Translations under genes and position numbers: made by a program
The notes under the pieces: model-generated
Told to the model about the DNA's origin: nothing
Database searches by the model: none
The model's input: the letters and a program-made list of their open reading frames with translations, nothing else
Source of the DNA: Candidatus Omnitrophota bacterium
GTDB lineage: Bacteria > Omnitrophota > Gorgyraeia > Zapsychrales > Aceulaceae
Reading direction: 5' to 3'
DNA: 64,000 nt
Assembly (NCBI GenBank): GCA_028693815.1
Contig: JAQUUP010000004.1
Coordinates: forward strand, 29,683 to 93,682
Part shown: piece by piece, positions 1,501 through 45,158 of the stretch
Layout of the letters: each line of letters starts with the position of its first letter
Position numbering within the stretch: the stretch's first letter is position 1

Positions 1501-2136
1501 ATGGATTTACCCGCTAATACAATTGAAAGAATCACAAAAATATATGGATATCTTGACGCATTAGCAGAGAGAGAAGTGGATTTTGTTTCTTCGAAAGAAT
1601 TGGCTGAGGCTGTGGGCACAACGGATCATACAATTCGAAAAGATGTTAGCCTTTTAAAAATTACAGGTTACACCAGAAAAGGGTATTGTGTTCGATCTTT
1701 AAAGGGCGAGCTAGCTAAAAAGCTCGAGCTTGATAAAGAGCGAAAGGCCTGTATTGTTGGTTTAGGCAGGCTTGGAACAGCGCTCTTAGACTATGAAAAG
1801 GCTAAACAGGATGGATTTAAGATTGTGGCAGGATTTGATTGCAGCATTAATAAGCTTGAGAGGATTCGTGCTTCGATTGATGTATTTTCGATGAGTGAGC
1901 TTGAAAACATCATTAAAGGCCGCAATATCGATCTTGGCATTATTACAGTGCCCGCTAAAGCTGCTCAAGAGGTAGCTGATCAGTTGATTGCAGCTGGAAT
2001 AAAAGGAATTCTTAATTTTTCTCCAGCAAAGATTGTTGTGCCAAAGAATATTATTTATGTGGATATGGATTTTACAAATGCTTTGCGTTTTATGGCAGTA
2101 AAGTTTATTACTAAAAAGGAAGCCCCGCGCCCTTGA
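1501..2136 (+). CDS. rex: redox-sensing transcriptional repressor Rex
   Basis: A winged-helix N-terminus is followed by a Rossmann fold (GLGRLGTALLDY...GFKIVAGFD) typical of Rex. The ATG at 1501 follows GGGAGG. Confidence 0.85.
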   Translation: MDLPANTIERITKIYGYLDALAEREVDFVSSKELAEAVGTTDHTIRKDVSLLKITGYTRKGYCVRSLKGELAKKLELDKERKACIVGLGRLGTALLDYEKAKQDGFKIVAGFDCSINKLERIRASIDVFSMSELENIIKGRNIDLGIITVPAKAAQEVADQLIAAGIKGILNFSPAKIVVPKNIIYVDMDFTNALRFMAVKFITKKEAPRP

Positions 2137-2215
2137 GAATCAGGGCTGGGGTAAATTCGCACAAATAACTTAACGCTCCATCGTAGTCGCGTAAGTTATG
2201 TGCTCATTTAAGAAA
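2123..2215 (+). repeat. structured hairpin element copy C: GC hairpin, then TAAATTCG, long imperfect hairpin, CTCATTTAAG
   Basis: It shares conserved ends and CTTRACG...CGTAAG internal boxes with the copies at 29911-29998 and 35180-35272. The stems differ in sequence but stay complementary. It lies directly 5' of the serC RBS. Confidence 0.6.
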
Positions 2216-12677: not shown

Positions 12678-13214
12678 ATGGTTATGATTAACAGAAAAAA
12701 GATTATAGCTGGAGTTGTGGTAGTAATGTTTTTTGCTTGGACAAATATTGCACAGGCAAGGGGTCACAATGGAATGAAAAAAAATGGTCCTCGTACAGAA
12801 GTCCGGGGTCCAAGCGAGGAACAGATTCAGAAGATGGAGAAGAATCTAGGAATTACGGAGGATCAATCATTGCAGCTAAGAAGTCATCGTGAGGGACATC
12901 AGATAAAGATGGAAAGTCTTATGAAACAAATGAAAGAAAAACGTGAAGCGTTAAAGCAAGAGTTAGAAAAAGCAGATACAGATCAGGCGTCTGTTGAGGT
13001 TTTGTCAGCTGAACTAAAAAACGTGCAAGCGCAGATGGTTGACGAAAGGATTAATGGCATTTCAGAAGTAAAATCAATCTTGACACCTGAGCAATTTGAG
13101 GAGTTTAAAGGAAAAATGAATAAAAAAGAGCGTTTTCGTAAAGAAAAAAGTTGGAAAAAAGGTGACGCTGAAGAAGAGAGGATGCCATCGTCTCGATTTG
13201 ATGATGATTTTTAA
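12678..13214 (+). CDS. Spy/CpxP-family periplasmic protein (LTxxQ motifs)
   Basis: It has a signal peptide and repeated LTPEQ / ITEDQ motifs. Confidence 0.65.
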   Translation: MVMINRKKIIAGVVVVMFFAWTNIAQARGHNGMKKNGPRTEVRGPSEEQIQKMEKNLGITEDQSLQLRSHREGHQIKMESLMKQMKEKREALKQELEKADTDQASVEVLSAELKNVQAQMVDERINGISEVKSILTPEQFEEFKGKMNKKERFRKEKSWKKGDAEEERMPSSRFDDDF

Positions 13215-13231
13215 TAATAAATGAAAGAAAG

Positions 13232-13269
13232 AAAAAGGGCTCTGCTTAAATAAGCAGAGCCCTTTTTTG
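13232..13269. terminator. bidirectional rho-independent terminator between convergent genes
   Basis: A 12-bp hairpin GGGCTCTGCTTA / TAAGCAGAGCCC with a 2-nt (AA) loop is flanked by AAAAAG on the 5' side and TTTTTTG on the 3' side. Confidence 0.8.
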
Positions 13270-13279
13270 TCTATCTTTT

Positions 13280-13747
13280 TTATTTAAAAGTTTTTAGTGT
13301 TTCCCATGTTTTTGAGCCGACAACACTATCAGGCGTAAGTCCATTGTCCTTTTGAAAATTTGAAATTGCATTGATTGTGTTTGGTCCAATTTTTCCATCA
13401 ACATTGCCTTCATAGTATCCGGCGTTTTTTAAAGCGATTTGAATCTCTGCAGGAGTTGCGTTAACGCGAATGATACCAAGCCCATCTTTAGATTCAAGAA
13501 CTTCTGGTGAAAGTTTTTTTGGTTCAGTCAGTTTAGTTAGCTGATTGTTTTTTTCTTCGATTTGCTTTGTGAGACCATTAATTTTATCGTAAAGACGAGA
13601 AATTTCTTGATCTTTTTTATTAATATTATTTTCTAAAAGATGAACACGATTAGTGAGTTCATCGGTTTGAGGCTGATATTTTTGTGTTGTCTGACAGCCA
13701 GCAAAGATAAGTCCTGAAGCCATAAGCAGAAGAAGTATTTTTTTCAT
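13280..13747 (-). CDS. lipoprotein with C-terminal peptidoglycan-binding (PG_binding_1) domain
   Basis: There is a lipobox (LIFAGCQ), a coiled-coil region and a GYYEGNVDGKIGPNTINAISNFQKDNGLTPDSVVGSKTW domain. Confidence 0.7.
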   Translation of the reverse strand: MKKILLLLMASGLIFAGCQTTQKYQPQTDELTNRVHLLENNINKKDQEISRLYDKINGLTKQIEEKNNQLTKLTEPKKLSPEVLESKDGLGIIRVNATPAEIQIALKNAGYYEGNVDGKIGPNTINAISNFQKDNGLTPDSVVGSKTWETLKTFK

Positions 13748-29456: not shown

Positions 29457-29879
29457 ATGCTTTACAGAAATGGTGAGTTTAAGGATACTATATACCATAT
29501 GAAAAATATTGTTATTCATATAGGGGATTTAGAAATTCGGGCTAAATTAAACGGTTCTCAAACTGCGGGTCTTATTTGGGATAGTCTTCCGATTAAATCG
29601 TTTACAAGTCTCTGGGGCGAGGAAATTTATTTTCAGATACCGGTCAAATGTGATTTGGAGGAAGGTTTTTCGTCAGAGGCAGCGGAAATAGGAGATTTGG
29701 GATATTGGCCTGAGGGAGATTGTTTTTGTATATTTTTTGGCCCTACGCCAATTAGCAAACCAGGAGAGATTCGTCCGGCAAGCAATGTTAATATTGTTGG
29801 AAAGATTGAAGCTGATTGGCAGGTTTTAAAGTCTGTTGGTGAGAATGAGACCGTTCTCATTGAAGAAGATGGTCAATAA
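29457..29879 (+). CDS. cyclophilin-like-fold protein (DUF3830-like)
   Basis: The sequence GDLGYWPEGDCFCIFFGPTPIS...RPAS matches the DUF3830 core. The start may instead be the ATG at 29499. Confidence 0.65.
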   Translation: MLYRNGEFKDTIYHMKNIVIHIGDLEIRAKLNGSQTAGLIWDSLPIKSFTSLWGEEIYFQIPVKCDLEEGFSSEAAEIGDLGYWPEGDCFCIFFGPTPISKPGEIRPASNVNIVGKIEADWQVLKSVGENETVLIEEDGQ

Positions 29880-29910
29880 ATAAAGTTTCAAAATTTAAAG
29901 TTTTAATATT

Positions 29911-29998
29911 CCGACACGTTGCACGTGTGGGATAAATTCGTGCGGCTGGCTTGACGTTGCCTTAAGGGCTTCCGTAAGCCAGGCATTCATTTAAGGAG
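29911..29998 (+). repeat. structured hairpin element copy A, directly abutting the rmuC RBS
   Basis: A short hairpin ACACGT-TGC-ACGTGT is followed by TAAATTCG, a long imperfect hairpin (GGCTGGCTTGACG...CGTAAGCCAGGC) and TCATTTAAGGAG. The AGGAG lies 7 nt before the ATG. Confidence 0.6.
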
Positions 29999-30003
29999 TA
30001 TTT

Positions 30004-31092
30004 ATGCAAATTTCTGTATGGGTTTTAATCGGGTCTGTTGCCGCTATTGTTGTTTCATTTGTTGTGTCGATTCTTATATTAAAGGAAATCGTTCGTAAAG
30101 AAGTGCGTCAGGAATTTGATTTTTCAAGAGGGCAACTTCAGGAAAAGTCAGAGACAGAAATGGAAATTAAGAAACAAGCTGTTGAAAGCTCTGTCAAAGA
30201 TTTAAAAGAATCGATTGATAAGTATGCCCAGATGGTGCATCGTTTCGAAAAAGATCGTGATGAAAAATATGGAAGCCTTGCTAATGAGCTTAAGAATACT
30301 TCGCAGGCAACCGTTCGATTGCAGGAAACGACAAGTCAATTAACAAATGTTTTGGGGAATAACCAAAAGCGTGGCGAGTGGGGTGAACGAATGGCAGAGG
30401 ACATTATCCAGCTCTGCGGACTTCGCGAAGGGGTTAATTATAAAAAACAAGCTAAAATTGATTCTTCTGGAACTAAGCCAGATTATACCTTTTTGCTTCC
30501 TAATAAGCATAAAATTAATATGGATGTAAAGTTTCCTCTGAGCAATTATCAGCAGATGGTCAACGCTGAAGATGTTAATCAAAAAGATATGCATAAAAAG
30601 CAATTTTTGTCTGACGTTAAACAGCGGCTTAAGGAGATTCAGAATCGATCATATATTAATCCTGCAGAAGGAACGCTTGATTTTGTGTTGGTTTTTATTC
30701 CTAATGAGCAAGTTTTTGGTTTTATTCAGGAGAATTTTCCAGGGTTGGTGGATGAGGCATTAAAGCAAAAGGTTGTTTTATGCTCACCTTTTACTTTGTA
30801 TTCGATGCTTTCTGTTATTCGTCAGGCGTTTGAGAATTTTTATTATGAAAAAGCGACAAAAGAAATTATTCGTATGATTGATCTTTTTGTTAAGACATAC
30901 GCTACGTTCAAAGAACGCTTTGCGTCATTGGGCGATGCAATGAAAAAAACTGTTCATCTGTATGCGGATATCCGCGACAAAAGCTTTAAGAATTTAGATA
31001 CAAAGATTAATCGCATCGAAGATTTTAAAAAGGGAAAAATGTCCTCTTCAGAGGAACCTCTTATTATTGATGTCAAAGAAGAAGGTGAGTAG
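30004..31092 (+). CDS. rmuC: DNA recombination protein RmuC
   Basis: An N-terminal TM helix and coiled coil are followed by the RmuC core (GEWGERMAEDII...). Confidence 0.8.
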   Translation: MQISVWVLIGSVAAIVVSFVVSILILKEIVRKEVRQEFDFSRGQLQEKSETEMEIKKQAVESSVKDLKESIDKYAQMVHRFEKDRDEKYGSLANELKNTSQATVRLQETTSQLTNVLGNNQKRGEWGERMAEDIIQLCGLREGVNYKKQAKIDSSGTKPDYTFLLPNKHKINMDVKFPLSNYQQMVNAEDVNQKDMHKKQFLSDVKQRLKEIQNRSYINPAEGTLDFVLVFIPNEQVFGFIQENFPGLVDEALKQKVVLCSPFTLYSMLSVIRQAFENFYYEKATKEIIRMIDLFVKTYATFKERFASLGDAMKKTVHLYADIRDKSFKNLDTKINRIEDFKKGKMSSSEEPLIIDVKEEGE

Positions 31093-34460: not shown

Positions 34461-37400
34461 ATGAATAAAAATATATTAAAGAATAGACCTTTTTTAAGGG
34501 CGATTTCCCTATTTGTTATTTTGGCTTTTGGGGAGAGCGTGCTTATTCCTCAATATGTTCCTAAGGTTTTGGCGCAGAGTGCTTTAGGAGTTCCTTCTTC
34601 AGGTGCAGTTATTCATTTAAGTCAGCCATTTACGCCTGTTATTTTTAGGGGTTTAAAGGTTTTCCCAAAAGATCCCCTAAGATTTGATTTTATTGTTGAT
34701 CGTGCTGATTCTAAGCTTGAAAAGGAAGAATTTAAGTCTGAAACCGAAAAATTAATTCGTTACTTTTTGGCATCTTTGACAATTCCTGAAAAAGACCTTT
34801 GGGTTAATCTTTCTCCGTATGAGCAAGACCGCATTATTCCACGAAGTCTTGGAAAAACAGAGATGGGAAAAGATATGCTAGCTCAAGATTATTTGCTAAA
34901 GCAAATCACAGCTTCTTTGATTCACCCAGAGGGTGACACAGGCAAGAAGTTTTGGCAACGAGTTTATAGTCGGGCTTATCAAGAATATGGCACAACTGAA
35001 ATTCCTGTGGACACGTTTAACAAGGTTTGGATTATGCCTCAAAAGGCTGTTGTTTATGAATTTGGAGATCGGGCTTTTGTGCTTGAGAGCAAGCTAAAGG
35101 TAATGCTGGAAACAGACTATTTGGCAATGCAAGAAGATAGAAGGGAGAGGATGGAAGATAGAGGAGGTGTTCCGATTTTGACTGCTGGGTCGCAGTCAAA
35201 ACGGAATAAATTCGCGCAGGCTGACTTGACGTCGACTCAAAGTCTCCGTAAGTCAGGCGCTCATTTAAAAAGCAAGTTAGCCTCTGACATTATCCGCGAT
35301 ATTGTTATTCCCGAATTAGAAAGCGAAGTCAATTTTGGTGAGAATTTTGCGCAATTGCGCCAAATCTATCATTCCATGATTTTGGCAGCATGGTTTAAAA
35401 AGAAACTTAAAGGATCGATCCTCAATCAAGTTTATGCGGATCAGAACAAAATTAAAGGCGTTGATTTAGTTGAAGAGAATGTTTCGCAAGAAATTTATGA
35501 TCAATATTTACAAGCATTTAAAAAAGGTGTTTGTGATTTTATTAAAGTCGAACATGATCCATATACGAATAAGAATATTCCAAGAAAATATTTTTCCGGC
35601 GGTATCGAATGGGTGGCATCAAGTAATATTGAATATGTTACAAATATTTCGAGTCAGCCGCCTGTTTGGGTGTCGAGCTCAAGCCTTGAAGGTGTTGATT
35701 TGAATCTCAAGCCGGTTTTCGATGCTCCTGATCAAGAAGCAGGATCTAATATCGTAGATCTAATTTCGGCTTTAAGCTTAGCTGGATATCCTCAAAAAAA
35801 GAATCAACAAAGAAATATTGTTTTGATTGGTTCAATAGATAGTCTTGAAAGCGCAATCTTTCTTTCAAATAAGTTTCCAAAATCAATTATTTATGTTGTT
35901 GAGGAAGATGAACAGTTTTTTGAAGAGCTTAAAAAGCAGCTTAAAGAAGTTGATGACGATCAAAATACGACAGGCATTCAGTTGATCCATGCGCATCCTT
36001 CAGATGTTTCGGATTCTTTGGCTAACGAAATGATTGATTTGGTTTTGATGGACAGTCATGTTGATTATTATGGATACATACAAAATGAACTTCCTGATAT
36101 TTTAAAAGAAATTAAACGTATCCTAAAACCAAAGGGCATTTTTTGTGCTGATTCTATTTCTTATTTTAAAGAAGCAAAACAAGATCTTGAAGTTCTAGGG
36201 TTTTTTTATTCGCAGCCATCTGAAAAAAAATATAAGGATTGGATTTTGGTTGCTGAGAAAAAGATTTCTTCATCTGTCACCGATTCCGCGCAGTCTGTTA
36301 TCTCGGATCTTAAAAAGGACTTGGGTCAAGGACCGTGGGTTTTTTATGCGTTTGGCGAAGTTCCTCATATTTATTGGGATGATAATTTGGATATTGAATT
36401 TTTTAAGAAAAAACAACAAGATTTTCTTAGATCCGCAACGCAATTGTCAAAATCAATTCCTTTTGAATTTGATCTAATACAGAGAGGAAGACTAGATTCT
36501 TTTACTATTGAGCTTCTTAAGAATGCCTATGATGCCCTTTTAGCTGTTTGGGACAAGGAGCTGCCTCAAAAGAATATTGCTTTGAAAAACTATATTCCAC
36601 AAGTAATGTTTGATATGAGTATTGATGATGACTCTTTGATTATTTCGGTTTACGATAATGGAATCGGTGACACAGCAAGTCGAGAGATTTTTACAAAACA
36701 TAAGAATCAAAAAGCTAACGAAGGGAAACGTTATTGTTATCTTGGCGGCGGTGGCTGGGGATTAATAAAGGTGCAGTATATCAAAAGTCTTTATAAAGGG
36801 GATTTTTCCTTAACGCTTGGAAACCGATCTAGCCGTTTTACACATGCAAAGATTACTATTCCTTTATCTAAGCTTGTTATCAAAAACAATGAAAAATTAG
36901 ATAAGCTAAGCTCCTTTTTTATAAAATCTGACTCTGCGCAAGCGAAAGGCAACAAGATTTCTTCGCCTACAACCGACCCCGCGCAGGTGGTCTCAAGCGG
37001 AATCCTTTTACCGGTTGACATCGAAAAAGAAAAACAGGGTTTTATTTCAGATTGGAATAAGTATTATCAGGATGGACTTGGCGCTGAAAAAATGAAGCTG
37101 ATGGTGGAAAAATCTAAAGGGGTCATGTCGATTTATGATTTTATAAAGATATGGATGGTAAAAAGCAAAAAGACGCTCGGAGGATATTCCTTGGGTATCA
37201 ATGAAGAATCTTATTTTGGATTTTGCGATTTGGCTGGACTCACAAATCATTATGAAGGCTATAAAGAGATGGAAATAACGTTTTTTGGGAATCCAGATCA
37301 CAGGTATATCCAAAAAATTTCAGCCACAGGAAAACCAATCGTTTTCTTTATTCCTAAAAACATTTTTACCTATTCAGACAATTATGCACAGCATACAAAA

Positions 37401-40400
37401 ACCGAAATGAGATATTTGCTTGAAAATTTTTCTTATTTAGAAAACGTTTATTTCGTCTTTGGAGCTTATGAGATTATTCCCCAAGAATATGAAGAAGAAT
37501 GGATGGAGAAATGTCCAATCCGGCTTAGCGGAAGAGAATGGTATGCAAAGCTTATCGAGAAGGTTTTTTCTGATGTGAACGACGTACGACGAACATCGAG
37601 CGACGCCCGCCTGCCGGCGAGGCAGGATTCACGCTTCACGATCGGCGAAGCTGCCGCCGACCTGCCTGACCGGCAGGCAGGCTCCGCGCAGGCGGGGGGA
37701 AAGTCCGCAGCCAATAACGAAAGTAAGTCAATCATCTCATCATCGATAGGGGTCAGGATGACTCAAGAAAAATTTAGTCATGAGCTGGGAAGACCTTTAA
37801 GTGAAGGTGAGTGGGCTCTTGTTGATGCGCTTTGGAGAATTGTGCCCTCTTCTAATGAGCAAAATCAATCTCTTTCTATCTGGAAGAGGGTGCGCAATCA
37901 GAAAATCTTTTCTAAAAAAGCATCAAGACCACGTTCTGCAGATGAGGATATTTTAGATATTTTTAGAAAGATGGATTTGGTGTTTAGAGGCGATGCTAAG
38001 CAAAAAAAGGATTTTATTTATCAAATGGAAAATTATGTTCATTTGTATTTAGAGAAAGAAAAGAATTTTGAAGGTTTGGAGCCTTTTGAGTTGCTAAAAA
38101 CGGTGTTAGCTCAAGCTAATCAGTCTCGGCCTTTGGATCGGACATTGATCGTGTTGAGCGATGTAATCGACAGAGGATTAATTAAGTCTGAAGAAACTAT
38201 CGTTGGAATTGCTGAGAAATTTCATTCTGATCCATCTCAATGGAAAGATATTCCTGATCAAAGCTCAAAAAAGAAGTCTATAATCGGGAGAAAACCGGTG
38301 GTTTTGTTGGTTGATGATAATCCAGGCCAGATCAGAGAGCTTAAGGTTTCTTTGGAGAATGCGGGATATGATGTTGACTTTGCCATGGCACCTGAAACAG
38401 GATTGAAGAAAATTGAGGAATCAATCCCTGATCTTATTGTCACCGATTGGGAAATGGCGCCTTTCATGGATGGCATAACATTTATTAAGAGACTTAAAAA
38501 ATCTTATCCAGATATTCCGGTTGTCTTTAGGTCAGGTGACGTTGGAGATGGTGATGACAGCCGTAGCATGCGAGGGAGTTTTATTTTAGCTGCGTTTGAT
38601 AATGTTGTTGCTGTTTCTGGGAAGTTTCGCGAAGAAGATGTCGCATTTCAAAAGATTCAAGAATTCGTCAAAACCTCCAGCCCGATGGGTGATCAGGTAT
38701 CGATAGATCTTGATATGGAAAAACCGCAAAAAGGATCTGTTTACGTAGGAAACGATGAAGTTTTTCCTAAAGCGGTGAGAGAATTTTTAGGAGACAGAAG
38801 AGTTTTGGTTATGGAAAATATATGCGATCAAGAGGTGGATGCGCAAACTCTTTCTTTGGCTCCTAAAAAGATAGACAATCCTGTTGCGCTTAGAGTGATT
38901 GTTGTAAGGTCAGCAGATAATCTGGAGGATAAAAAGCCTCTTTGCAATGTCTTTGTTTTGGATGCCTCAGATAAAGATGCTCCTATGTTGGCGTATTCAA
39001 GCATGAAGATGAACACGGAAGAAGGCTATTATATGCAGACATGGTCGAAAAGGACAGCTCCTTTTAGTATTCCAAGACAAGCTTTTATTCAACGGTCAAT
39101 AGTTTTATTGTTAGCTAAGGGAGGCATAAAGGAGCATAGATCTGATACTGAGGGAGGCTTGCAAAATGATCGATCTAACGATAGATATCTTAATATGAAG
39201 AACGATTCTCGCCTTGAGGTCATTGCTGATAAGGGCTATATTGTTAGATATATTGGTGCTTCGAGTGGTTTGATGGGGGATGGAAATGCTGAAGACAGTG
39301 ATCAGGATTTGCATATAACGGAGGCGCTTCGAAAAAAAATATCAGAAAGTGGCATGGTTAAGGCGTTTTCGGAAACCGAATTTTTTGAGGATCAAAGGAT
39401 TAAGAATGAAGATGATTTAATTGAGGCCCTTAATAAACATTCTCAAGGAGTATTTGATATTAGAGAGTTTAAGCAAAGAGAGTTTTTAGAAGACGTTTAT
39501 GCGTTTGGACCACGCGGAGAAAGACATAACAAAGTAGTTGAGGAATTAGGATTTATCCACTATATGACATCTTTAGAGCCATATAATTTTGTTTTTTCTC
39601 ATTTAATTAAGAAATTAATTCAGGAAAAATCTAAAATTGTTTTTTTTGTTGGCAGAAATCTTGATCAGCAACATTTCACGAAGCTTACAACTGAAGAGTT
39701 GAGATTGCTTTTTGATAAAGAGGGATCCATAGAAAATGTTTATTTTGTTTTTGGTCTTTATGATCCTTTGCCTAATGTTGAGAATGCGTATCAAATAAAA
39801 GAAGATTCTCATGATGATGTAACAGTCGAAATAGAAAAAGGGAGCGAGGACAGGGATCATCGGGTAGTGAAGAAACGCAGAGCCTTTCCCAAAACAGTTG
39901 CCAATGAAAAAGCTGTTAAGAAAATTGAAGAATTTTTAAAAACTGAAAAAGGATTTATCCAATATGTTCTTGATTTTGTGGAGAAAGAAAATGGTCTTAC
40001 TTACTGGTTCTCCGATGGTTTTATCGCCTATCTTAAGAAAAGATTAGAAAAAGAATTTTCAATAAACATAACAACGCGAATGCTTGTCGATTTGTTTGGG
40101 CTTAATTCGGGTCTCTATAGCCTAGGGTTAAATGATAAGAATTTGAAAACAGGAGGAATTAGGGATAGCACCCGAGATGTTTTGATGAGTGATTTTATGA
40201 GCCATCAAGGGCCAGAGGCAGAAAAATCAAAACGATATTTTATTGAATTATGTTCAAATAAATATGTTCAAAAAATGTTTAAAAATCTTGAGCCAGGAGC
40301 GGTATCGATTAGGGATGGTGTTACGCTTTTTGATTATTTGCTTAAACGTCTAAAAGAAAGTTTTTCAGGCTACGTTATCGATTTTATCAATTCAGGTGGA

Positions 40401-43400
40401 AATTCTTTTTGGGATTTAAAAGGTTCACAAGGACTTTATGCCTATTCAAAGAAAAGGCTTGAGCAACACTTAGGTGGAGAGATAACAAATCTCATGTATT
40501 CTAATTTGCTAGGTTTTTCTTTTCCTAGTTCAGAAAAAAGGCGCCTTACAGGTGTTATATATAGTAAAACAAGAGATTTGATAGTTGCAAGATTTAGGCT
40601 TGAAGGAGAAGCGAGAAAAGGCATAGATAAAATTTATGAAAATCAAACAAGAAATATCGATGAGGAAAAGCTGCGCACAATAAGATTAAAATCAAAAGCT
40701 GAGAATTATATTCGGGGAGGGGCGTTTGAGAAGTATGTAGTTGATTATATTAAGAAATATGGATCAGGAGTTTTTGCAGATACTAAGGGGAAAGAAGGTT
40801 TTTATTTTTATGCTAAAGAAAGAGTAGAGCTTGATCTCAACGCCAAGATAGATGATTTGCTTTTTAATCGTATTTTAGGGGTTAAATTTAATTTATCAAA
40901 GAAAAAGAGATTTCATACAAGATCTATGCTGATGAACCTTAAAAAGATCGATCTGATATGCAATAAATTTAATATCGACAAAAAAATTAAGAAATATTTA
41001 AAAGGTATATGTTTTCAGAGTAGAGAGGGGAAAAAAGCTATTCTTAATGACTTTTATGTCCCATATTTTAAAGAAAAGCTTGAAGAATATTTAAAGCGAG
41101 GGGATCAGAATATTGTAAGCCTTTTTGGGAAAGATGGATTTTTTTACTATCTTTTTACTAGGGGATCTTTTTTATTGGAAGCGCACGCGCAATTTCTTGG
41201 TGTTGAAGAGGATGTTTTGGCTAATTTAATGGAAGGAAACATCGAAGGGTCCATTCTCGATGAATTAAAATCGATTCCGATTACCATAGGTCTCAGCGCT
41301 AAATTGAAAAATATATTTTTGAATCTTTTAGAAGAAGAAAAGGAAAACAAAAAGTTTTCTGGCATAACTAATTTAAAGGAGTTCGCTTTTGGTCCCAAAA
41401 GGCAGGTTTTAGAATCGGTAGCTTCTAGCGTTGTTACGCTTAGAGACGGCAGCACGATTCCTGAGAGCGTGTATCGAAATGTGCGTGATGCTCTTGGCTT
41501 GCCAGACAACAGAAATCCTGAAAAGAAGTATTTTACAATTTTTCAGGGTGGCAGCAGTGATGAGGCAATAAGGATTTTGAGCCTAATTGCTTCTAAAGAA
41601 AATTTTAATAAAAATGATTTTTTAAATTTAGCGATGGGTGGCAACCGGGATTTGTTTAAAGATATTTTGCGTTATTTAGCAGAAAAAAATTTGGTTGTTT
41701 TTAGTGGAAAGTTTGAAGACAATATAAAATTTGATCGAGATAGCAGCTTGTCTATGGATAGCACAGTTGCGCTCTTGATTCGCGCAAGCATTGATACGAG
41801 CGGAGACCCTTTCAGAGGAACTACATATTTTGCTTTTCAAGATCCGCTTTCGCAGGATAGTAGTAAGATTTCTTCTCCCACCATTGACCTCGCGCAGGCC
41901 ATGACGGCAGGGGAAAAAACGAGTTCATCAGGTATCAAGCTTATCGATTCGAAATCGGTCAAGCAAGCCATTGAAGAGGCGAGTCCGTTCGATATTCAGG
42001 TTAATGGTCAAAAGATCCCCATTTATTTGTATTGTAATTTTTCTGATGATCTTAGGGCATACAAAAAGAATGTTGTTTCGTTGATGATCCAAGCGATGCC
42101 TTTTGGCAGGAATGTCCGTTCTCAAGAATACAGAGAGGGGATTGAGGGTCACCCGGCGCTTTCGAACCTTTTGAATATTTCATCTGATCTTGGAGAGCTT
42201 GAGAGAGGTGGGTTTTTTGGTTTACTAACTGCGTCCCTTGAGCAAAGATCTGATGGAAGCGTGGTTTTGTATTTTGAAGAGAATCAGTTTTCGAGCAATT
42301 TTAAGCGCATTAAGCCGGGTAGTGCGCGCAAAGCATATGAGGAGTGGGTTCCTCGAGCTCATAAACATCTCATTGATGTTTTAAAGAAAAATTTTAATGT
42401 GGTAGATGTATATGCGCTTTCCAAAGACGTTATCCATGAACATTATAAGAATGACCGCATTAGTAAGGCGCGGCTGAAAGGTGTATTTAAAAAAGACGCG
42501 GATGCGATCTGGAATGATCTTGTCGACCATCAATGGATTTTTTCATATTCTGTTGACGGATATGACATCGCGCGCGTTAATCCTGTGCCGCCTCAAGGCC
42601 GTGAAAGATTGGCCGGAGATTGGGATATGGAGAGATTAGATCGCTTTTTAAGTACTCCTCAATCGAAGGTGAGCGGAGAGAATTTAAGAGAAGCTTATAG
42701 CCTCCCTTATAATAGACCAGAGTGGCGACGCGTGACCATGCCTCTTCCTGAGGCTTTACGTTTCCAATGGGGAAACTCATTTTGGGGAAACACCGCAATA
42801 GTTGGCGATGTTGAACTTTATCATTATGAGCCGATGGGGGATGAGGCGCAAGGCAACAAGATTTCTTCGCCCACCTCCATTGACCCCGCGCAGGGAGGGA
42901 AAACTTCCTCTCCAACATTAGCTGAAATGCTTGTAGCATCGGAAGGGATTCCAAAATTTTTAATGGAAACGGCAAAAAGCGTTCTTTTTGAGAATGACGA
43001 GAAAATTAAGGAATTTTTAGGTATAGAGCAGATTAGAAGTGTTCGGTGTCGACCTTATTTTTTACATACACCATTGAGCCTTTTAGTTTTTACATTTGAG
43101 ACTGAAAAAGGACAAAGATCAATTTATGTTAAGCGTAAATGCTCTGACTTTGAACAAGAGCTTACTCTTGACGCTTCTCGGGAAGAGGTCTTTCCTCCAA
43201 GTATGATTTTAAATGAGTCCGATGGCAGAAAGGCACTGTTTATTCGAGGAATAGATGATGGGGCTTCTTTGGAAAAAGTTAAAAAAGACCCCGATTGGAA
43301 GAAGTTCTTTTTGAACAATGAAGAACATTTCGTTAAAAAAATAGGAAATCAATACGGAAAATTAAATAAAAAGGCAGATGTTATGCATCACGATGTTCTT

Positions 43401-45158
43401 CTAAGGCATATATTTATTACAAAAAATAAAAAGGTATTCTTAATTGATTTAACAACAGAAGATGATGATGGAAATCCGATGTCGTCTAGATGGAGGGGCA
43501 TGCTCCACTATCTAGGCGAGGATCTTTATAAGGTAAAAGGAAAAATTTTTAGTTTTGTCCGCGATCTTTATTCGAGCGACTTGGTTTCTGGAAAAATGTT
43601 ATTTAATGATTTTAAAAAGAAAGAAAATTTTTATCAACAGTGGGTTCAAGGAGGATATGACGAAATACCTGAAGAGGTTAATAGGCCCAGTAAAGAAAAG
43701 AATCCCTATTTTCCGGGGAAAGAAGAAATTGCCTCCAGCCCCGCTCAGGTAGGAGAGAGAGTTATTTCTCTGGATGATTATAGTAAGGGTGATTCAGATA
43801 TTCAAGGAAAAGCAGGTCAGTCGGCTGTCTATTTTTCCGAAGACGGGAAACATGTTTTAAAGATATTTAACAAAGATTTGGTTAAAAAGTATGTAAGTGA
43901 TGGCGAAATTTCCGATGCACATGTAGTTATTATGGCTAAAATTATATTGAATCTCTCTGAAGAAATGAAAAGAAAGTTCATGGACTCAAAAATAAAAATT
44001 GTAGTTCCTGAGCTTGTAAGAATCAAAAATGGTCCTTTGGCCCTTTTGTCAAAAAGAATAAAAGGGGGAGAGCCGTCTTTCTTAGATCGAGGAGCAGTTA
44101 AGAAGATAAGTGAATTTCGCGAACGGATTTCCGGCCTTCTTGCGTTTCCTATTCAGGACAGAAGAGAATTAGATTACACAAATTTTTTAATTGATGAGCT
44201 CACAGGGCAAATTTATTGTATTGATTTGATTGACATGATTAGCTTGTTCTACATTCTTGATCAGATCGAAGAGAAACCTTTTGACGACCTGGATCGGATT
44301 AGTAAAAGATTTATAAAAGATGATTTTGATAAAAAATCCATCTCCTTACCCATCGGCAAAGCCATCTCCGACCCCGCGCAGGCAGGGGATGGTGATCGTA
44401 GTCAAACGCTTGTGCAACGCTTTACAGGTAATTCTGTCATGGCAACTATTTCACAACGTAATAATGATGTGATCCAATTTATTAAGAATTTTCTTGAAAG
44501 CGATTCTATTTTTATAAAGGAAGCCATTAACCAAGGTGAGAATTTCTCAGATGAAGAAGTTAATAGTAGATGGAAGAAGATTTTAGAAGATTTTAGCAAA
44601 GATTTAGGCCCAAATCAGATTGTTGATAATTTAAAAGATTTTTTAAACATAGAAACGATAGGAAATTATGATATTCATCAAATGATATCTCATCAGATAA
44701 CGATTGCGCTAGGGGCCCTTGAGACTTTAACGGCCATTAAAAAGAAAAAGCCTGAAAAATGGACGGATCAAGAATATAACGCCGCGGTAGCCGAATGGGA
44801 GACAAGGGTAAAAGATTACGGCTTCCAAGCTTATATTACTTTGCGCGCTATTGAACTTGCTGCAAGAGAGGAAAAAATATCCTCTGTTTTCATAAACCAA
44901 ACAACCGGCGGTATTGATTTTGATCGAGACAATTGGGAGCTGGAGACTAGAGGCGAAGGAATTGAATTTGAGATTCCAGCGGAGCTTCAAGGGGTTAATT
45001 TTGATGAAATTCAAGGTTTTGTGCCTGTTATCATTAATATTGTGCCAATCACAAATATTTTGCTGATTCTCGGATTAAGTGAAAAAGATATTAAGAATCT
45101 TAAGTGGGCACAAGAGTTGCAAGTTGCAGATAAGCCTAGGGAATTAAGTCTGCTTTAG
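34461..45158 (+). CDS. giant 3565-aa multidomain protein: N-terminal signal/anchor, CCoAOMT-like SAM-methyltransferase core, GHKL ATPase, CheY-like receiver, duplicated unknown module, two atypical kinase-like cores
   Basis: A single open frame of 10,698 nt. Motif-level domain assignments are given in the findings. A promoter-like TGGCAA-17-TATACT lies upstream. Confidence 0.8.
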   Translation: MNKNILKNRPFLRAISLFVILAFGESVLIPQYVPKVLAQSALGVPSSGAVIHLSQPFTPVIFRGLKVFPKDPLRFDFIVDRADSKLEKEEFKSETEKLIRYFLASLTIPEKDLWVNLSPYEQDRIIPRSLGKTEMGKDMLAQDYLLKQITASLIHPEGDTGKKFWQRVYSRAYQEYGTTEIPVDTFNKVWIMPQKAVVYEFGDRAFVLESKLKVMLETDYLAMQEDRRERMEDRGGVPILTAGSQSKRNKFAQADLTSTQSLRKSGAHLKSKLASDIIRDIVIPELESEVNFGENFAQLRQIYHSMILAAWFKKKLKGSILNQVYADQNKIKGVDLVEENVSQEIYDQYLQAFKKGVCDFIKVEHDPYTNKNIPRKYFSGGIEWVASSNIEYVTNISSQPPVWVSSSSLEGVDLNLKPVFDAPDQEAGSNIVDLISALSLAGYPQKKNQQRNIVLIGSIDSLESAIFLSNKFPKSIIYVVEEDEQFFEELKKQLKEVDDDQNTTGIQLIHAHPSDVSDSLANEMIDLVLMDSHVDYYGYIQNELPDILKEIKRILKPKGIFCADSISYFKEAKQDLEVLGFFYSQPSEKKYKDWILVAEKKISSSVTDSAQSVISDLKKDLGQGPWVFYAFGEVPHIYWDDNLDIEFFKKKQQDFLRSATQLSKSIPFEFDLIQRGRLDSFTIELLKNAYDALLAVWDKELPQKNIALKNYIPQVMFDMSIDDDSLIISVYDNGIGDTASREIFTKHKNQKANEGKRYCYLGGGGWGLIKVQYIKSLYKGDFSLTLGNRSSRFTHAKITIPLSKLVIKNNEKLDKLSSFFIKSDSAQAKGNKISSPTTDPAQVVSSGILLPVDIEKEKQGFISDWNKYYQDGLGAEKMKLMVEKSKGVMSIYDFIKIWMVKSKKTLGGYSLGINEESYFGFCDLAGLTNHYEGYKEMEITFFGNPDHRYIQKISATGKPIVFFIPKNIFTYSDNYAQHTKTEMRYLLENFSYLENVYFVFGAYEIIPQEYEEEWMEKCPIRLSGREWYAKLIEKVFSDVNDVRRTSSDARLPARQDSRFTIGEAAADLPDRQAGSAQAGGKSAANNESKSIISSSIGVRMTQEKFSHELGRPLSEGEWALVDALWRIVPSSNEQNQSLSIWKRVRNQKIFSKKASRPRSADEDILDIFRKMDLVFRGDAKQKKDFIYQMENYVHLYLEKEKNFEGLEPFELLKTVLAQANQSRPLDRTLIVLSDVIDRGLIKSEETIVGIAEKFHSDPSQWKDIPDQSSKKKSIIGRKPVVLLVDDNPGQIRELKVSLENAGYDVDFAMAPETGLKKIEESIPDLIVTDWEMAPFMDGITFIKRLKKSYPDIPVVFRSGDVGDGDDSRSMRGSFILAAFDNVVAVSGKFREEDVAFQKIQEFVKTSSPMGDQVSIDLDMEKPQKGSVYVGNDEVFPKAVREFLGDRRVLVMENICDQEVDAQTLSLAPKKIDNPVALRVIVVRSADNLEDKKPLCNVFVLDASDKDAPMLAYSSMKMNTEEGYYMQTWSKRTAPFSIPRQAFIQRSIVLLLAKGGIKEHRSDTEGGLQNDRSNDRYLNMKNDSRLEVIADKGYIVRYIGASSGLMGDGNAEDSDQDLHITEALRKKISESGMVKAFSETEFFEDQRIKNEDDLIEALNKHSQGVFDIREFKQREFLEDVYAFGPRGERHNKVVEELGFIHYMTSLEPYNFVFSHLIKKLIQEKSKIVFFVGRNLDQQHFTKLTTEELRLLFDKEGSIENVYFVFGLYDPLPNVENAYQIKEDSHDDVTVEIEKGSEDRDHRVVKKRRAFPKTVANEKAVKKIEEFLKTEKGFIQYVLDFVEKENGLTYWFSDGFIAYLKKRLEKEFSINITTRMLVDLFGLNSGLYSLGLNDKNLKTGGIRDSTRDVLMSDFMSHQGPEAEKSKRYFIELCSNKYVQKMFKNLEPGAVSIRDGVTLFDYLLKRLKESFSGYVIDFINSGGNSFWDLKGSQGLYAYSKKRLEQHLGGEITNLMYSNLLGFSFPSSEKRRLTGVIYSKTRDLIVARFRLEGEARKGIDKIYENQTRNIDEEKLRTIRLKSKAENYIRGGAFEKYVVDYIKKYGSGVFADTKGKEGFYFYAKERVELDLNAKIDDLLFNRILGVKFNLSKKKRFHTRSMLMNLKKIDLICNKFNIDKKIKKYLKGICFQSREGKKAILNDFYVPYFKEKLEEYLKRGDQNIVSLFGKDGFFYYLFTRGSFLLEAHAQFLGVEEDVLANLMEGNIEGSILDELKSIPITIGLSAKLKNIFLNLLEEEKENKKFSGITNLKEFAFGPKRQVLESVASSVVTLRDGSTIPESVYRNVRDALGLPDNRNPEKKYFTIFQGGSSDEAIRILSLIASKENFNKNDFLNLAMGGNRDLFKDILRYLAEKNLVVFSGKFEDNIKFDRDSSLSMDSTVALLIRASIDTSGDPFRGTTYFAFQDPLSQDSSKISSPTIDLAQAMTAGEKTSSSGIKLIDSKSVKQAIEEASPFDIQVNGQKIPIYLYCNFSDDLRAYKKNVVSLMIQAMPFGRNVRSQEYREGIEGHPALSNLLNISSDLGELERGGFFGLLTASLEQRSDGSVVLYFEENQFSSNFKRIKPGSARKAYEEWVPRAHKHLIDVLKKNFNVVDVYALSKDVIHEHYKNDRISKARLKGVFKKDADAIWNDLVDHQWIFSYSVDGYDIARVNPVPPQGRERLAGDWDMERLDRFLSTPQSKVSGENLREAYSLPYNRPEWRRVTMPLPEALRFQWGNSFWGNTAIVGDVELYHYEPMGDEAQGNKISSPTSIDPAQGGKTSSPTLAEMLVASEGIPKFLMETAKSVLFENDEKIKEFLGIEQIRSVRCRPYFLHTPLSLLVFTFETEKGQRSIYVKRKCSDFEQELTLDASREEVFPPSMILNESDGRKALFIRGIDDGASLEKVKKDPDWKKFFLNNEEHFVKKIGNQYGKLNKKADVMHHDVLLRHIFITKNKKVFLIDLTTEDDDGNPMSSRWRGMLHYLGEDLYKVKGKIFSFVRDLYSSDLVSGKMLFNDFKKKENFYQQWVQGGYDEIPEEVNRPSKEKNPYFPGKEEIASSPAQVGERVISLDDYSKGDSDIQGKAGQSAVYFSEDGKHVLKIFNKDLVKKYVSDGEISDAHVVIMAKIILNLSEEMKRKFMDSKIKIVVPELVRIKNGPLALLSKRIKGGEPSFLDRGAVKKISEFRERISGLLAFPIQDRRELDYTNFLIDELTGQIYCIDLIDMISLFYILDQIEEKPFDDLDRISKRFIKDDFDKKSISLPIGKAISDPAQAGDGDRSQTLVQRFTGNSVMATISQRNNDVIQFIKNFLESDSIFIKEAINQGENFSDEEVNSRWKKILEDFSKDLGPNQIVDNLKDFLNIETIGNYDIHQMISHQITIALGALETLTAIKKKKPEKWTDQEYNAAVAEWETRVKDYGFQAYITLRAIELAAREEKISSVFINQTTGGIDFDRDNWELETRGEGIEFEIPAELQGVNFDEIQGFVPVIINIVPITNILLILGLSEKDIKNLKWAQELQVADKPRELSLL
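35180..35272 (+). repeat. structured hairpin element copy B, located in-frame inside the giant ORF
   Basis: The hairpin GACTGC-TGGGTC-GCAGTC is followed by TAAATTCG, a long hairpin (GCAGGCTGACTTGACG...CGTAAGTCAGGCGC) and TCATTTAAAAAG. It is translated as ...KRNKFAQADLTSTQSLRKSGAHLKSK... Confidence 0.6.
37570..37720 (+). repeat. GC-rich (about 70% GC) island with two perfect GC hairpins, in-frame inside the giant ORF
   Basis: The hairpins are CCTGCC-GGCGA-GGCAGG and CCTGCCTG-ACCGG-CAGGCAGG, embedded in an otherwise ~35% GC gene. The island encodes ...SSDARLPARQDSRFTIGEAAADLPDRQAGSAQAGG... Confidence 0.7.

Follow-up and report, generated by a model that had tools for sequence, protein, structure and literature searches.

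Short hairpin-forming repeats at gene junctions of Candidatus Omnitrophota probably represent a new family of small non-autonomous mobile elements

The bacteria of Candidatus Omnitrophota have not been brought into culture and are for the most part ultra-small; they possess compact genomes with giant genes, and to our knowledge their mobile DNA is essentially undescribed. The question addressed here is raised by a 64,000-nucleotide stretch of one such metagenome-assembled genome (MAG), i.e., part of contig JAQUUP010000004.1, hereafter termed the window, in which a structured hairpin occurs 5' of rmuC (copy A), inside a giant open reading frame (ORF; copy B) and 5' of serC (copy C). A previous reading of the window, made from the sequence only, had offered two alternative explanations, namely a riboregulator or thermosensor that occludes the ribosome-binding site (RBS) of the downstream gene, or a small palindromic mobile element; the latter part of that proposal is supported, while the former is not supported in this window. 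The element is multicopy, lineage-restricted and modular, and is gained, duplicated, degraded and lost with its hairpin conserved. It is not an RNA switch dedicated to the adjoining genes, and it probably represents a new, previously uncatalogued family of short (105-110 nt), non-coding, non-autonomous and hairpin-forming mobile repeats, which is specific to Candidatus Omnitrophota and is kin in type to the Correia, ERIC, RPE and REP elements.

The pattern TAAATTCG-N35-65-CATTTAA matches the window exactly three times, always on the + strand (2152-2211, 29933-29994 and 35207-35268), against a chance expectation of 0.01 matches per window, and none of 100 shuffled control sequences contained three or more matches; together with inspection of the sites this confirms the three hairpin copies that the sequence-only reading had claimed. 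Each copy follows the layout TAAATTCG, N9-10, CTTRACG, N14-16, CGTAAG, N7 and YTCATTTA, so that the boxes and their order are as previously described, although the 3' variable arm measures 7 nt and not 9 nt. The variable arms are, as had also been claimed, complementary inside each copy, except for a conserved purine bulge of 2-3 nt (AA, GG or AGG). In RNA folding, every copy takes the form of a long irregular hairpin (H2) preceded by a second hairpin (H1), and these folds beat those of shuffled sequences on the sense strand (z = -2.5 to -3.4) as well as on the antisense strand (z = -3.2 to -5.9). The upstream hairpin, said to be perfect in each case, is indeed present in all three copies, although only two are perfect and that at 2123-2151 is imperfect. 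A covariance model (R1), applied to the whole window with filters off, recovers the three copies at 61-81 bits and nothing further convincing, so that the additional partial copy that had been proposed is not found. The next match (13230-13268, E = 1.2) is a perfect GC-rich hairpin with A-run and T-run flanks located between the convergent ORFs 12678-13214 (+) and 13280-13747 (-), and looks like an ordinary bidirectional intrinsic terminator-like hairpin outside the repeat family.

The mobile-element reading is supported most directly by sites that are filled in the window and empty in relatives. Gene order around rmuC is kept over ~20 kb in four relatives (L095-L098; RmuC 63-89% identical), in which the spacer between the cyclophilin-like gene and rmuC measures 15, 14, 9 and 3 nt, compared to 124 nt in the window. 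An empty site reads, for example, TAA-AATAAAGGAGTGGT-ATG, with an ancestral spacer of roughly ATAAAGGAGTnTTT, while the filled spacer consists of ATAAAG, a 110-nt insert ending in ...CATTTAAG, and then GAGTATTT-ATG. R1 detected no copy in 84 kb of the four syntenic rmuC loci. The host MAG is close to Ca. Aceula lacicola in this protein, the two RmuC sequences being 89% identical. As delimited by filled versus empty sites, the inserted unit of copy A spans 29886..29995 (+), with boundaries uncertain by +/-3 nt due to AAG/TAA microhomology, and sits between the stop codon of the cyclophilin-like gene (29877-29879) and the Shine-Dalgarno (SD) sequence of rmuC. The DNA gained at this site comprises H1 and H2 together: an A/T-rich left arm of the H1 module (29886-29909, +; the same module, left arm included, is nested in locus L025), H1 proper (29910..29932, +; TCC-G-ACACGT-TGC-ACGTGT-G-GGA; fold -12 kcal/mol, z = -4.0) and H2 with its conserved boxes (29933..29993, +; identified by the pattern and by R1 at 70.7 bits, E = 5e-16). 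Directly 3' of the copy (29993..30006, +) lie the SD sequence AAGGAG (29993-29998) and the rmuC start codon (ATG, 30004-30006), the latter at 10 nt from the end of the element; copy C is likewise followed by GGAGG before the ATG at 2229, and the reported abutment of copies A and C on RBS and start codon is therefore correct.

The serC site was compared by protein search and contig look-ups (a metagenome scan with SerC gave mostly distant, non-Omnitrophota loci), and was scored as empty in three loci (L179, L180 and L181). Relatives with 86-87% SerC identity have a 15-nt spacer, as in L180, or an unrelated 48-nt spacer; a third relative (SerC 82%) possesses a possible GC-rich remnant at the site, and Ca. 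Aceula meridiana (L182) carries a shortened, degenerate copy at the same junction. In the window the whole unit of copy C (2114..2211, +) covers the 3' end of ORF 1489-2136 and precedes serC. It consists of the left-end motif AAGGAAG (2116..2122, +; SD-like, with the family consensus AAGGNAAT in alignments), H1 (2123..2151, +; CCCCGCGCCC...GGGCTGGGG; fold -16.7 kcal/mol, z = -3.6) and H2 (2152..2210, +; identified by the pattern and by R1 at 60.9 bits, E = 2e-13). The upstream ORF extends into H1 both in the window and in A. meridiana, with a changed C-terminus of its product as a result: the CoA-binding/Rex-like protein of ORF 1489-2136 ends in ...KFITKKEAPRP* in the window versus ...KFITKQ* in L180, and its stop codon (TGA, 2134-2136) is now located inside the H1 loop of copy C.

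Copy B (whole unit 35169..35270, +) lies in frame within the giant ORF 34461-45158, where it is translated as an extra segment of ~34 aa (VPILTAGSQSKRNKFAQADLTSTQSLRKSGAHLK) in the variable linker that separates two conserved blocks of the N-terminal domain. The segment is absent from the positional orthologues in L095 and L096 and from most of ~20 aligned homologues, which instead carry a short unrelated linker of ~25 aa. Its H1 (35170..35206, +; TTCCGATTTTGACTGC-TGGGTC-GCAGTCAAAACGGAA; -20.1 kcal/mol, z = -5.3) bears the UGGGUC loop that a loop census indicates to be typical of the family, and its H2 (35207..35267, +), also matched by the pattern, is the highest-scoring of the three (R1 81.3 bits, E = 7e-19). 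One Aceula protein (L025) contains the copy B insert and, in addition, a further 17-aa H1 module. The copies in the window are thus lineage-specific, recent insertions, and at other sites units have decayed or disappeared.

When the 5' two-thirds of the pattern was used to search a single genome of each species, 93 stretches matched, the great majority of which have the expected 3' end and are labelled Candidatus Omnitrophota. Those stretches that the covariance model confirms represent at least 37 species-representative MAGs, almost all of them with an Omnitrophota label; some stretches bear the submitter's label "uncultured Planctomycetia/Planctomycetales", which could not be verified. A covariance-model search for further copies in relatives, as the sequence-only reading had advised, was productive: R1 gave 111 matches in 685 kb of the pattern-hit loci. 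Single MAGs were found to contain at least 10-12 strict-pattern copies (the window has 3 copies in 64 kb), and near-identical copies occur inside one MAG. Twelve pattern matches from other phyla gave no R1 match and all lack the expected 3' end, and are therefore attributed to chance. No match to the element was obtained in viral contigs (IMG/VR), and no description of such an element was found in the full-text literature on Omnitrophota. Rfam 15 returned nothing at the element, either in the window at gathering threshold or at the two-copy locus L002 at E <= 10, in line with the earlier remark that no known RNA family could be recognised. With empty sites in syntenic relatives, an in-frame insertion and more than 100 Omnitrophota copies beside unrelated genes, the mobile-element half of the earlier proposal is supported.

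What had been described as a ~62-nt element corresponds to only part of the repeat. Of 110 copies, 95% show a fold of <= -10 kcal/mol in the 45 nt that precede H2, a six-base H1 loop of the sequence UAGGCC, UAGGUC, UGGGCC or UUGGCC is present in 60 of the 110 on a variable stem, and 57 of 66 such loops are directly followed by H2. The upstream hairpin is therefore part of the repeat, and the unit measures ~105-110 nt, comprising a left motif that resembles an SD sequence and lies left of H1 in alignments (AAGGNAAT; one lineage has AATAATAATGA), the variable H1 and the conserved H2. Across the family H2 is 60-72 nt long, with 13 to 28 nt between its boxes. Its base (P1) is a 5-bp outer helix, TAAAT/ATTTA, followed by an invariant UC/UC internal loop, a 4-bp helix and a GG or AGG bulge; the middle consists of a 7-bp helix with CUU/AAG at its end, a G.U (or A-U) pair with a bulged A, and CG/CG, so that the boxes CTTGACG and CGTAAG face each other, and above them a second UC/UC loop often precedes the variable tip. 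The ends of H2 form imperfect inverted repeats (TAAATTCG... / ...CTCATTTA).

Several arrangements attest to the modularity of the unit. Tandem arrays of 2-3 units with a period of ~100 nt occur at L002:5034-5199, L014:6709-6968, L083:6256-6511 and L091:2746-2910; their inner units lack the terminal CTCATTTA and run directly into the following unit at its left end, AATAATAATGA, and such junctions bear on the true end of the mobile unit. Some family members carry extra small GC hairpins, and mini variants (L014:6276, L083:5341 and L182:2943-3000) keep H1 and the outer frame TAAATTC...TCATTTA while the boxed core of H2 is wholly replaced by a short GC-rich hairpin. At L025:551-685 a 51-nt H1 module of the copy A type (ACACGT hairpin plus A/T-rich left arm) is nested in a copy B-like element, between GGAATAA and ATTCG, with ATAA on both sides; it is in frame and accounts for the 17 extra residues mentioned above. 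The locus L077:2407-3252 contains a ~628-nt segmental duplication that each time carries two different repeat units, the first of which is flanked by an 18-nt direct repeat, TCGTTCGGCAATCCACCT. Of note, the GGCC core of the H1 loop (or GGUC with wobble pairs; e.g., window positions 35186-35191) is self-complementary, and as judged from this sequence, loop-loop pairing between units is therefore conceivable. The possibility that the unit encodes a small protein was rejected, as a single sense frame traverses H2 without a stop and indels close this frame in other copies. The repeat units have a GC content of about 40-50%, compared to 34-38% for the window.

The complementarity of the variable arms was assessed on 83 distinct copies from other genomes; the stems provide independent evidence, since the search pattern fixed only the boxes. 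A standard pair is formed in 96.3% of the H2 pair cells, compared to 18-40% when partners are slid by 1-3 columns, and 187 double-sided changes were observed against 43.5 +/- 8.2 in shuffles, none of 500 shuffles reaching 187. Variable positions display 4-6 pair types, and even a box pair, C27-G54, switches to U-A in variants. The covariation that had been asserted from three copies is thus upheld and is genuine, yet on its own it is no proof of RNA function. G.U pairs (21) are not enriched relative to A.C mismatches (15), and the constraint is therefore symmetric between the strands, which fits a DNA hairpin, or an element folding in either orientation, at least as well as RNA. An attempt to read the folding strand from these two counts was abandoned, as they are uninformative and reveal no preference for RNA.

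The position of the copies relative to genes was determined for 84 strict copies. In half of these (42/84) a start codon lies <= 18 nt from the 3' end, which agrees with the proposed preference for gene starts: 26 are immediately followed by an SD sequence with the start codon 7-18 nt away, and a further 16 have an ATG that adjoins or shares the final A of the copy. A stop codon of the upstream gene is usually located just before the left motif, such that the unit takes up the entire intergenic gap. Copies that run in the direction of the flanking genes, and of the G-rich strand, outnumber the others by approximately 4:1; antisense copies adjoin rpsL, rho and an IMPDH-like gene, and their terminal TTA supplies the TAA stop of the neighbour. 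In the window itself, GC skew is strongly positive throughout (+0.13 to +0.29) and the + strand carries almost all of the long ORFs.

It is proposed that the unit is moved in trans by an enzyme encoded elsewhere, which probably reads H2 as a folded hairpin or cruciform. Such an enzyme would account for arms that remain Watson-Crick complementary without G.U excess, the boxes alone keeping their sequence. We infer that a hairpin-reading logic of the REP/RAYT, IS200/IS605 or attC type best explains the combination of covarying arms and the lack of inverted repeats at the ends of the whole unit. The insertions that survive would be those at stop-to-SD/ATG junctions that contain TA or TAA and that leave or supply a working RBS, given that intergenic spacers measure only about 3-35 nt in these genomes (mostly 10-35 nt in the window). 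This survival filter would in turn explain both the tight abutment on SD and start codon and the ~4:1 orientation bias without a dedicated regulatory role. The unit is presumably co-transcribed with its neighbours, and a candidate role of its compact fold is to make it tolerable in that position.

A number of findings weigh against this interpretation. No unambiguous target-site duplication is found at the rmuC and serC junctions, which hold TA, TAA or AAG on both sides, so that duplications of 0-3 bp fit equally. A terminal inverted repeat is present in H2 alone and missing from the H1+H2 unit as a whole. No Y1/RAYT homologue was detected by tblastn (E < 0.1) in 1.26 Mb of genome fragments with IS608 TnpA and E. 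coli RAYT queries, and ~0.8 Mb of Omnitrophota sequence contained no cognate insertion sequence (IS) and no long element with H2 at its two ends, the search for such ends 150-4000 nt apart yielding only the L077 segmental duplication. GC skew and coding direction correlate (r = 0.78), which makes the contribution of either to the orientation bias inseparable. In the 16-copy subfamily that abuts the ATG, the only SD-like sequence (AGGTG, AGGGG or AAGGA) resides in the 3' arm of H2, 7 nt upstream of the ATG, where pairing is predicted (unpaired probability 0.16); if this prediction is correct, it implies some opening or cutting of H2. Finally, the boxes are conserved over genomes of 36-59% GC with compensatory changes in every lineage, a degree of conservation that exceeds the needs of a decaying selfish element and could reflect an RNA function at the level of the host.

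With respect to the movement mechanism only, an alternative is that H2 alone is a TA-flanked, cut-and-paste MITE (miniature inverted-repeat transposable element), with terminal inverted repeats AATTCGnnn / nnnCTCATT, mobilised with TA duplication by an IS630/Tc1-like DDE transposase, the H1 modules being separate nested insertions. This would agree with the TA at both ends of H2, as in Correia, ERIC and RUP elements (PMC2229807), with the imperfect inverted repeats formed by these ends, with the TA/TAA present at the junction of both empty sites (rmuC and serC) and with the ATAA on both sides of the nested H1 module in L025. However, the 110-nt gain at rmuC contains both hairpins, and the modules rarely travel alone, considering that 57 of 66 H1 loops directly precede H2. 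Furthermore, a transposase reading double-stranded inverted repeats needs no complementarity between the arms, yet the arms stay complementary, while the duplication is ambiguous and the ~0.8 Mb searched holds no cognate IS. We therefore regard a cut-and-paste origin as possible, albeit somewhat doubtful.

A further explanation holds that a once-mobile element has been domesticated as an RNA "punctuation" signal of operons, which would uncouple the stability or translation of the flanking cistrons; a double-strand-specific RNase would cut the irregular H2 duplex of ~25 bp, or this duplex would halt exonucleases or Rho, and cutting would free the SD sequence in the ATG-abutting subfamily. Such a role would suit the exact filling of the stop-to-SD gap, the predominance of co-directional copies, the phylum-wide conservation of boxes, internal loops and bulges, and the need of the sequestered-SD subfamily for a way to open the stem, and it has precedents in Correia/RNase III and ERIC/RNase E (PMC2229807). 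Conversely, close relatives differ in the sites that have been gained, lost or degraded, and no single copy therefore appears indispensable; antisense and intragenic copies exist, and the constraint is equal on both strands, which suits DNA as well as RNA. Domestication of this kind is thus considered unlikely as the primary explanation. More improbable still, and assessed jointly for its two forms, is the view that H2 is the recognition hairpin of a structure-specific system conserved in Omnitrophota, which would be either an undescribed HUH/tyrosine-type enzyme of single-strand mobilisation that reads a bulged hairpin of 60 nt, or a host RNA-processing machinery, the latter cutting H2 by a double-strand RNase, or H2 cleaving itself, to separate cistrons and release the SD sequence buried in the stem of the ATG-abutting subfamily.

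The reading of the element as a cis-acting riboregulator, riboswitch or RNA thermometer that hides the downstream RBS is, for this window, largely refuted, and is very improbable as a general explanation. It can draw on a stable and covarying fold, on a 3' end that touches the SD sequence or start codon in about half of the copies, and on the 16-copy subfamily in which the -14..-5 window lies inside the H2 stem (unpaired probability 0.16). The SD sequences of rmuC and serC, however, lie 3' of P1, that of rmuC sharing only A 29993 with the conserved helix, and the predicted probability of being unpaired is 0.67 and 0.44, respectively, with a mean of 0.55 over the 26 copies with an external SD; these two SD sequences are not predicted to be sequestered. 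Moreover, rmuC and serC orthologues in relatives do without the element, its neighbours are unrelated (serC, rmuC and a giant surface-type protein; elsewhere rpsL and rho), and there are copies within an ORF, copies in antisense orientation to genes and copies where convergent genes end. Neither an Rfam match, nor G.U enrichment, nor a terminator was found. A mobile transcription signal is scarcely credible: a resemblance of CTTGACG to a -35 hexamer with CGTAAGT 15-18 nt downstream in many copies could suggest a sigma-70-type promoter (TTGACG ... TAAGTN), and A/U-rich AUUUA after the hairpins an intrinsic terminator or attenuator, but in consensus scans none of the three window copies shows a site resembling a promoter or a terminator, the boxes lie anywhere from 13 to 28 nt apart, TAAGTC does not end in the T that is invariant in a -10 hexamer, neither hairpin is followed by a U-run, and a terminator right before an intra-operon SD sequence would silence the downstream gene.

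The giant ORF that hosts copy B encodes 3565 aa, and its ~380-aa N-terminal domain, which has no Pfam match, has more than 1600 homologues at E <= 1e-10, the named ones all being from Omnitrophota except for one from Auribacterota. The domain is fused to diverse C-terminal regions, among them methyltransferase, kinase, ankyrin and glycosyltransferase domains. In homologues of this N-terminus, other low-complexity segments are duplicated in frame, in the same linker and ~100 aa further on: in protein P0017, for example, ...ESQSQE..SAEDGSASGGNP... occurs twice, and at L098:14681-16000 ...QQPN..LSNPLTLKSS... is present twice. Such duplicated linker segments may represent a second family of in-frame repeats.

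The repeat family marks recent genome change among close relatives, and its insertions rewrite protein C-termini and add peptide segments to large surface-type proteins. It can mislead gene callers and also RNA-motif screens, because it displays real covariation without being a riboswitch. The conserved hairpin may be used as a lead to the mobilising or processing enzyme, and the family exemplifies how a mobile element can be confined by a compact genome to junctions between stop codon and Shine-Dalgarno sequence. It is noteworthy for being conserved across Omnitrophota lineages, for its precise placement between stop codon and SD sequence, and for its editing of protein ends and linkers.

Small bacterial mobile repeats are known to be 100-200 bp long, to form long stem-loops, to occupy intergenic as well as in-frame intragenic positions and to possess 5'-TA...TA-3' termini (PMC2229807). 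The Omnitrophota unit displays traits of this MITE-like class, being short and non-coding, with many dispersed copies per genome and with presence or absence at orthologous sites (rmuC, serC and the giant ORF). It resembles in general form the Correia/NEMIS elements of Neisseria, which likewise are ~105-155 bp long, multicopy and intergenic, with a long irregular hairpin, TA termini and in-frame short forms (PMC2229807). The RNA hairpin of Correia is a substrate of RNase III and alters the stability of neighbouring mRNA, and the element is co-transcribed with adjacent genes (PMC2229807), as would be the case for the Omnitrophota unit. Correia differs, however, in having sequence-conserved terminal inverted repeats of 24-26 bp and a clear TA duplication, whereas the Omnitrophota unit conserves only short boxes, has freely covarying arms and includes a second, non-symmetric hairpin (H1); the two share no evident sequence similarity and reside in different host phyla. 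The ERIC/IRU elements of Enterobacteria and Vibrio are comparable as ~127-bp imperfect palindromes of transcribed operon intergenic regions that are conserved across genera, with orientation-dependent effects on mRNA decay and known in-frame ORF fusions (PMC2229807), but they consist of one long palindrome with a fixed consensus, while the Omnitrophota unit is modular (H1 types, H2, mini-H2 and tandem arrays) and abuts SD and start codon much more tightly. The RPE of Rickettsia are palindromes of 105-146 bp that occur intergenically and in frame in conserved protein genes, where the resulting peptide is tolerated (PMC2229807). Copy B behaves in a similar manner, with its ~34-aa insert in a variable linker, although only one of the three window copies is intragenic, only one H2 frame is open, the sequence is unrelated and the Omnitrophota host is free-living or epibiotic.

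Structure-recognised systems offer the remaining comparisons. REP/BIME are short extragenic palindromes with covarying stems and a conserved short tag, whose movement is ascribed to an HUH Y1 enzyme acting on the folded single strand, and these elements, like IS200/IS605-type ends, share with the Omnitrophota unit covarying stems, orientation bias and the lack of terminal inverted repeats of the whole unit. REP sequences differ in their GTAG or CGTC 5' tag and 20-40 nt palindrome, compared to a 5' foot of GGA-TAAATTCG and an H2 of 60-72 nt, and no BIME-like clusters of alternating orientation were seen among the Omnitrophota copies. Integron attC sites, which are also recognised by structure, are 57-141 nt long and combine outer and inner paired boxes, an unpaired spacer, extrahelical bases and a variable terminal loop, a layout to which that of H2 is alike in kind; attC is nevertheless distinguished by RYYYAAC/GTTRRRY boxes, which are absent from the Omnitrophota consensus, and the Omnitrophota copies bound no cassettes, being flanked by syntenic housekeeping genes with no integrase in the neighbourhood. 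The element matches none of Correia/NEMIS, ERIC, RPE and REP in sequence or in exact architecture, and is set apart from REP and attC by lacking their defining tags.

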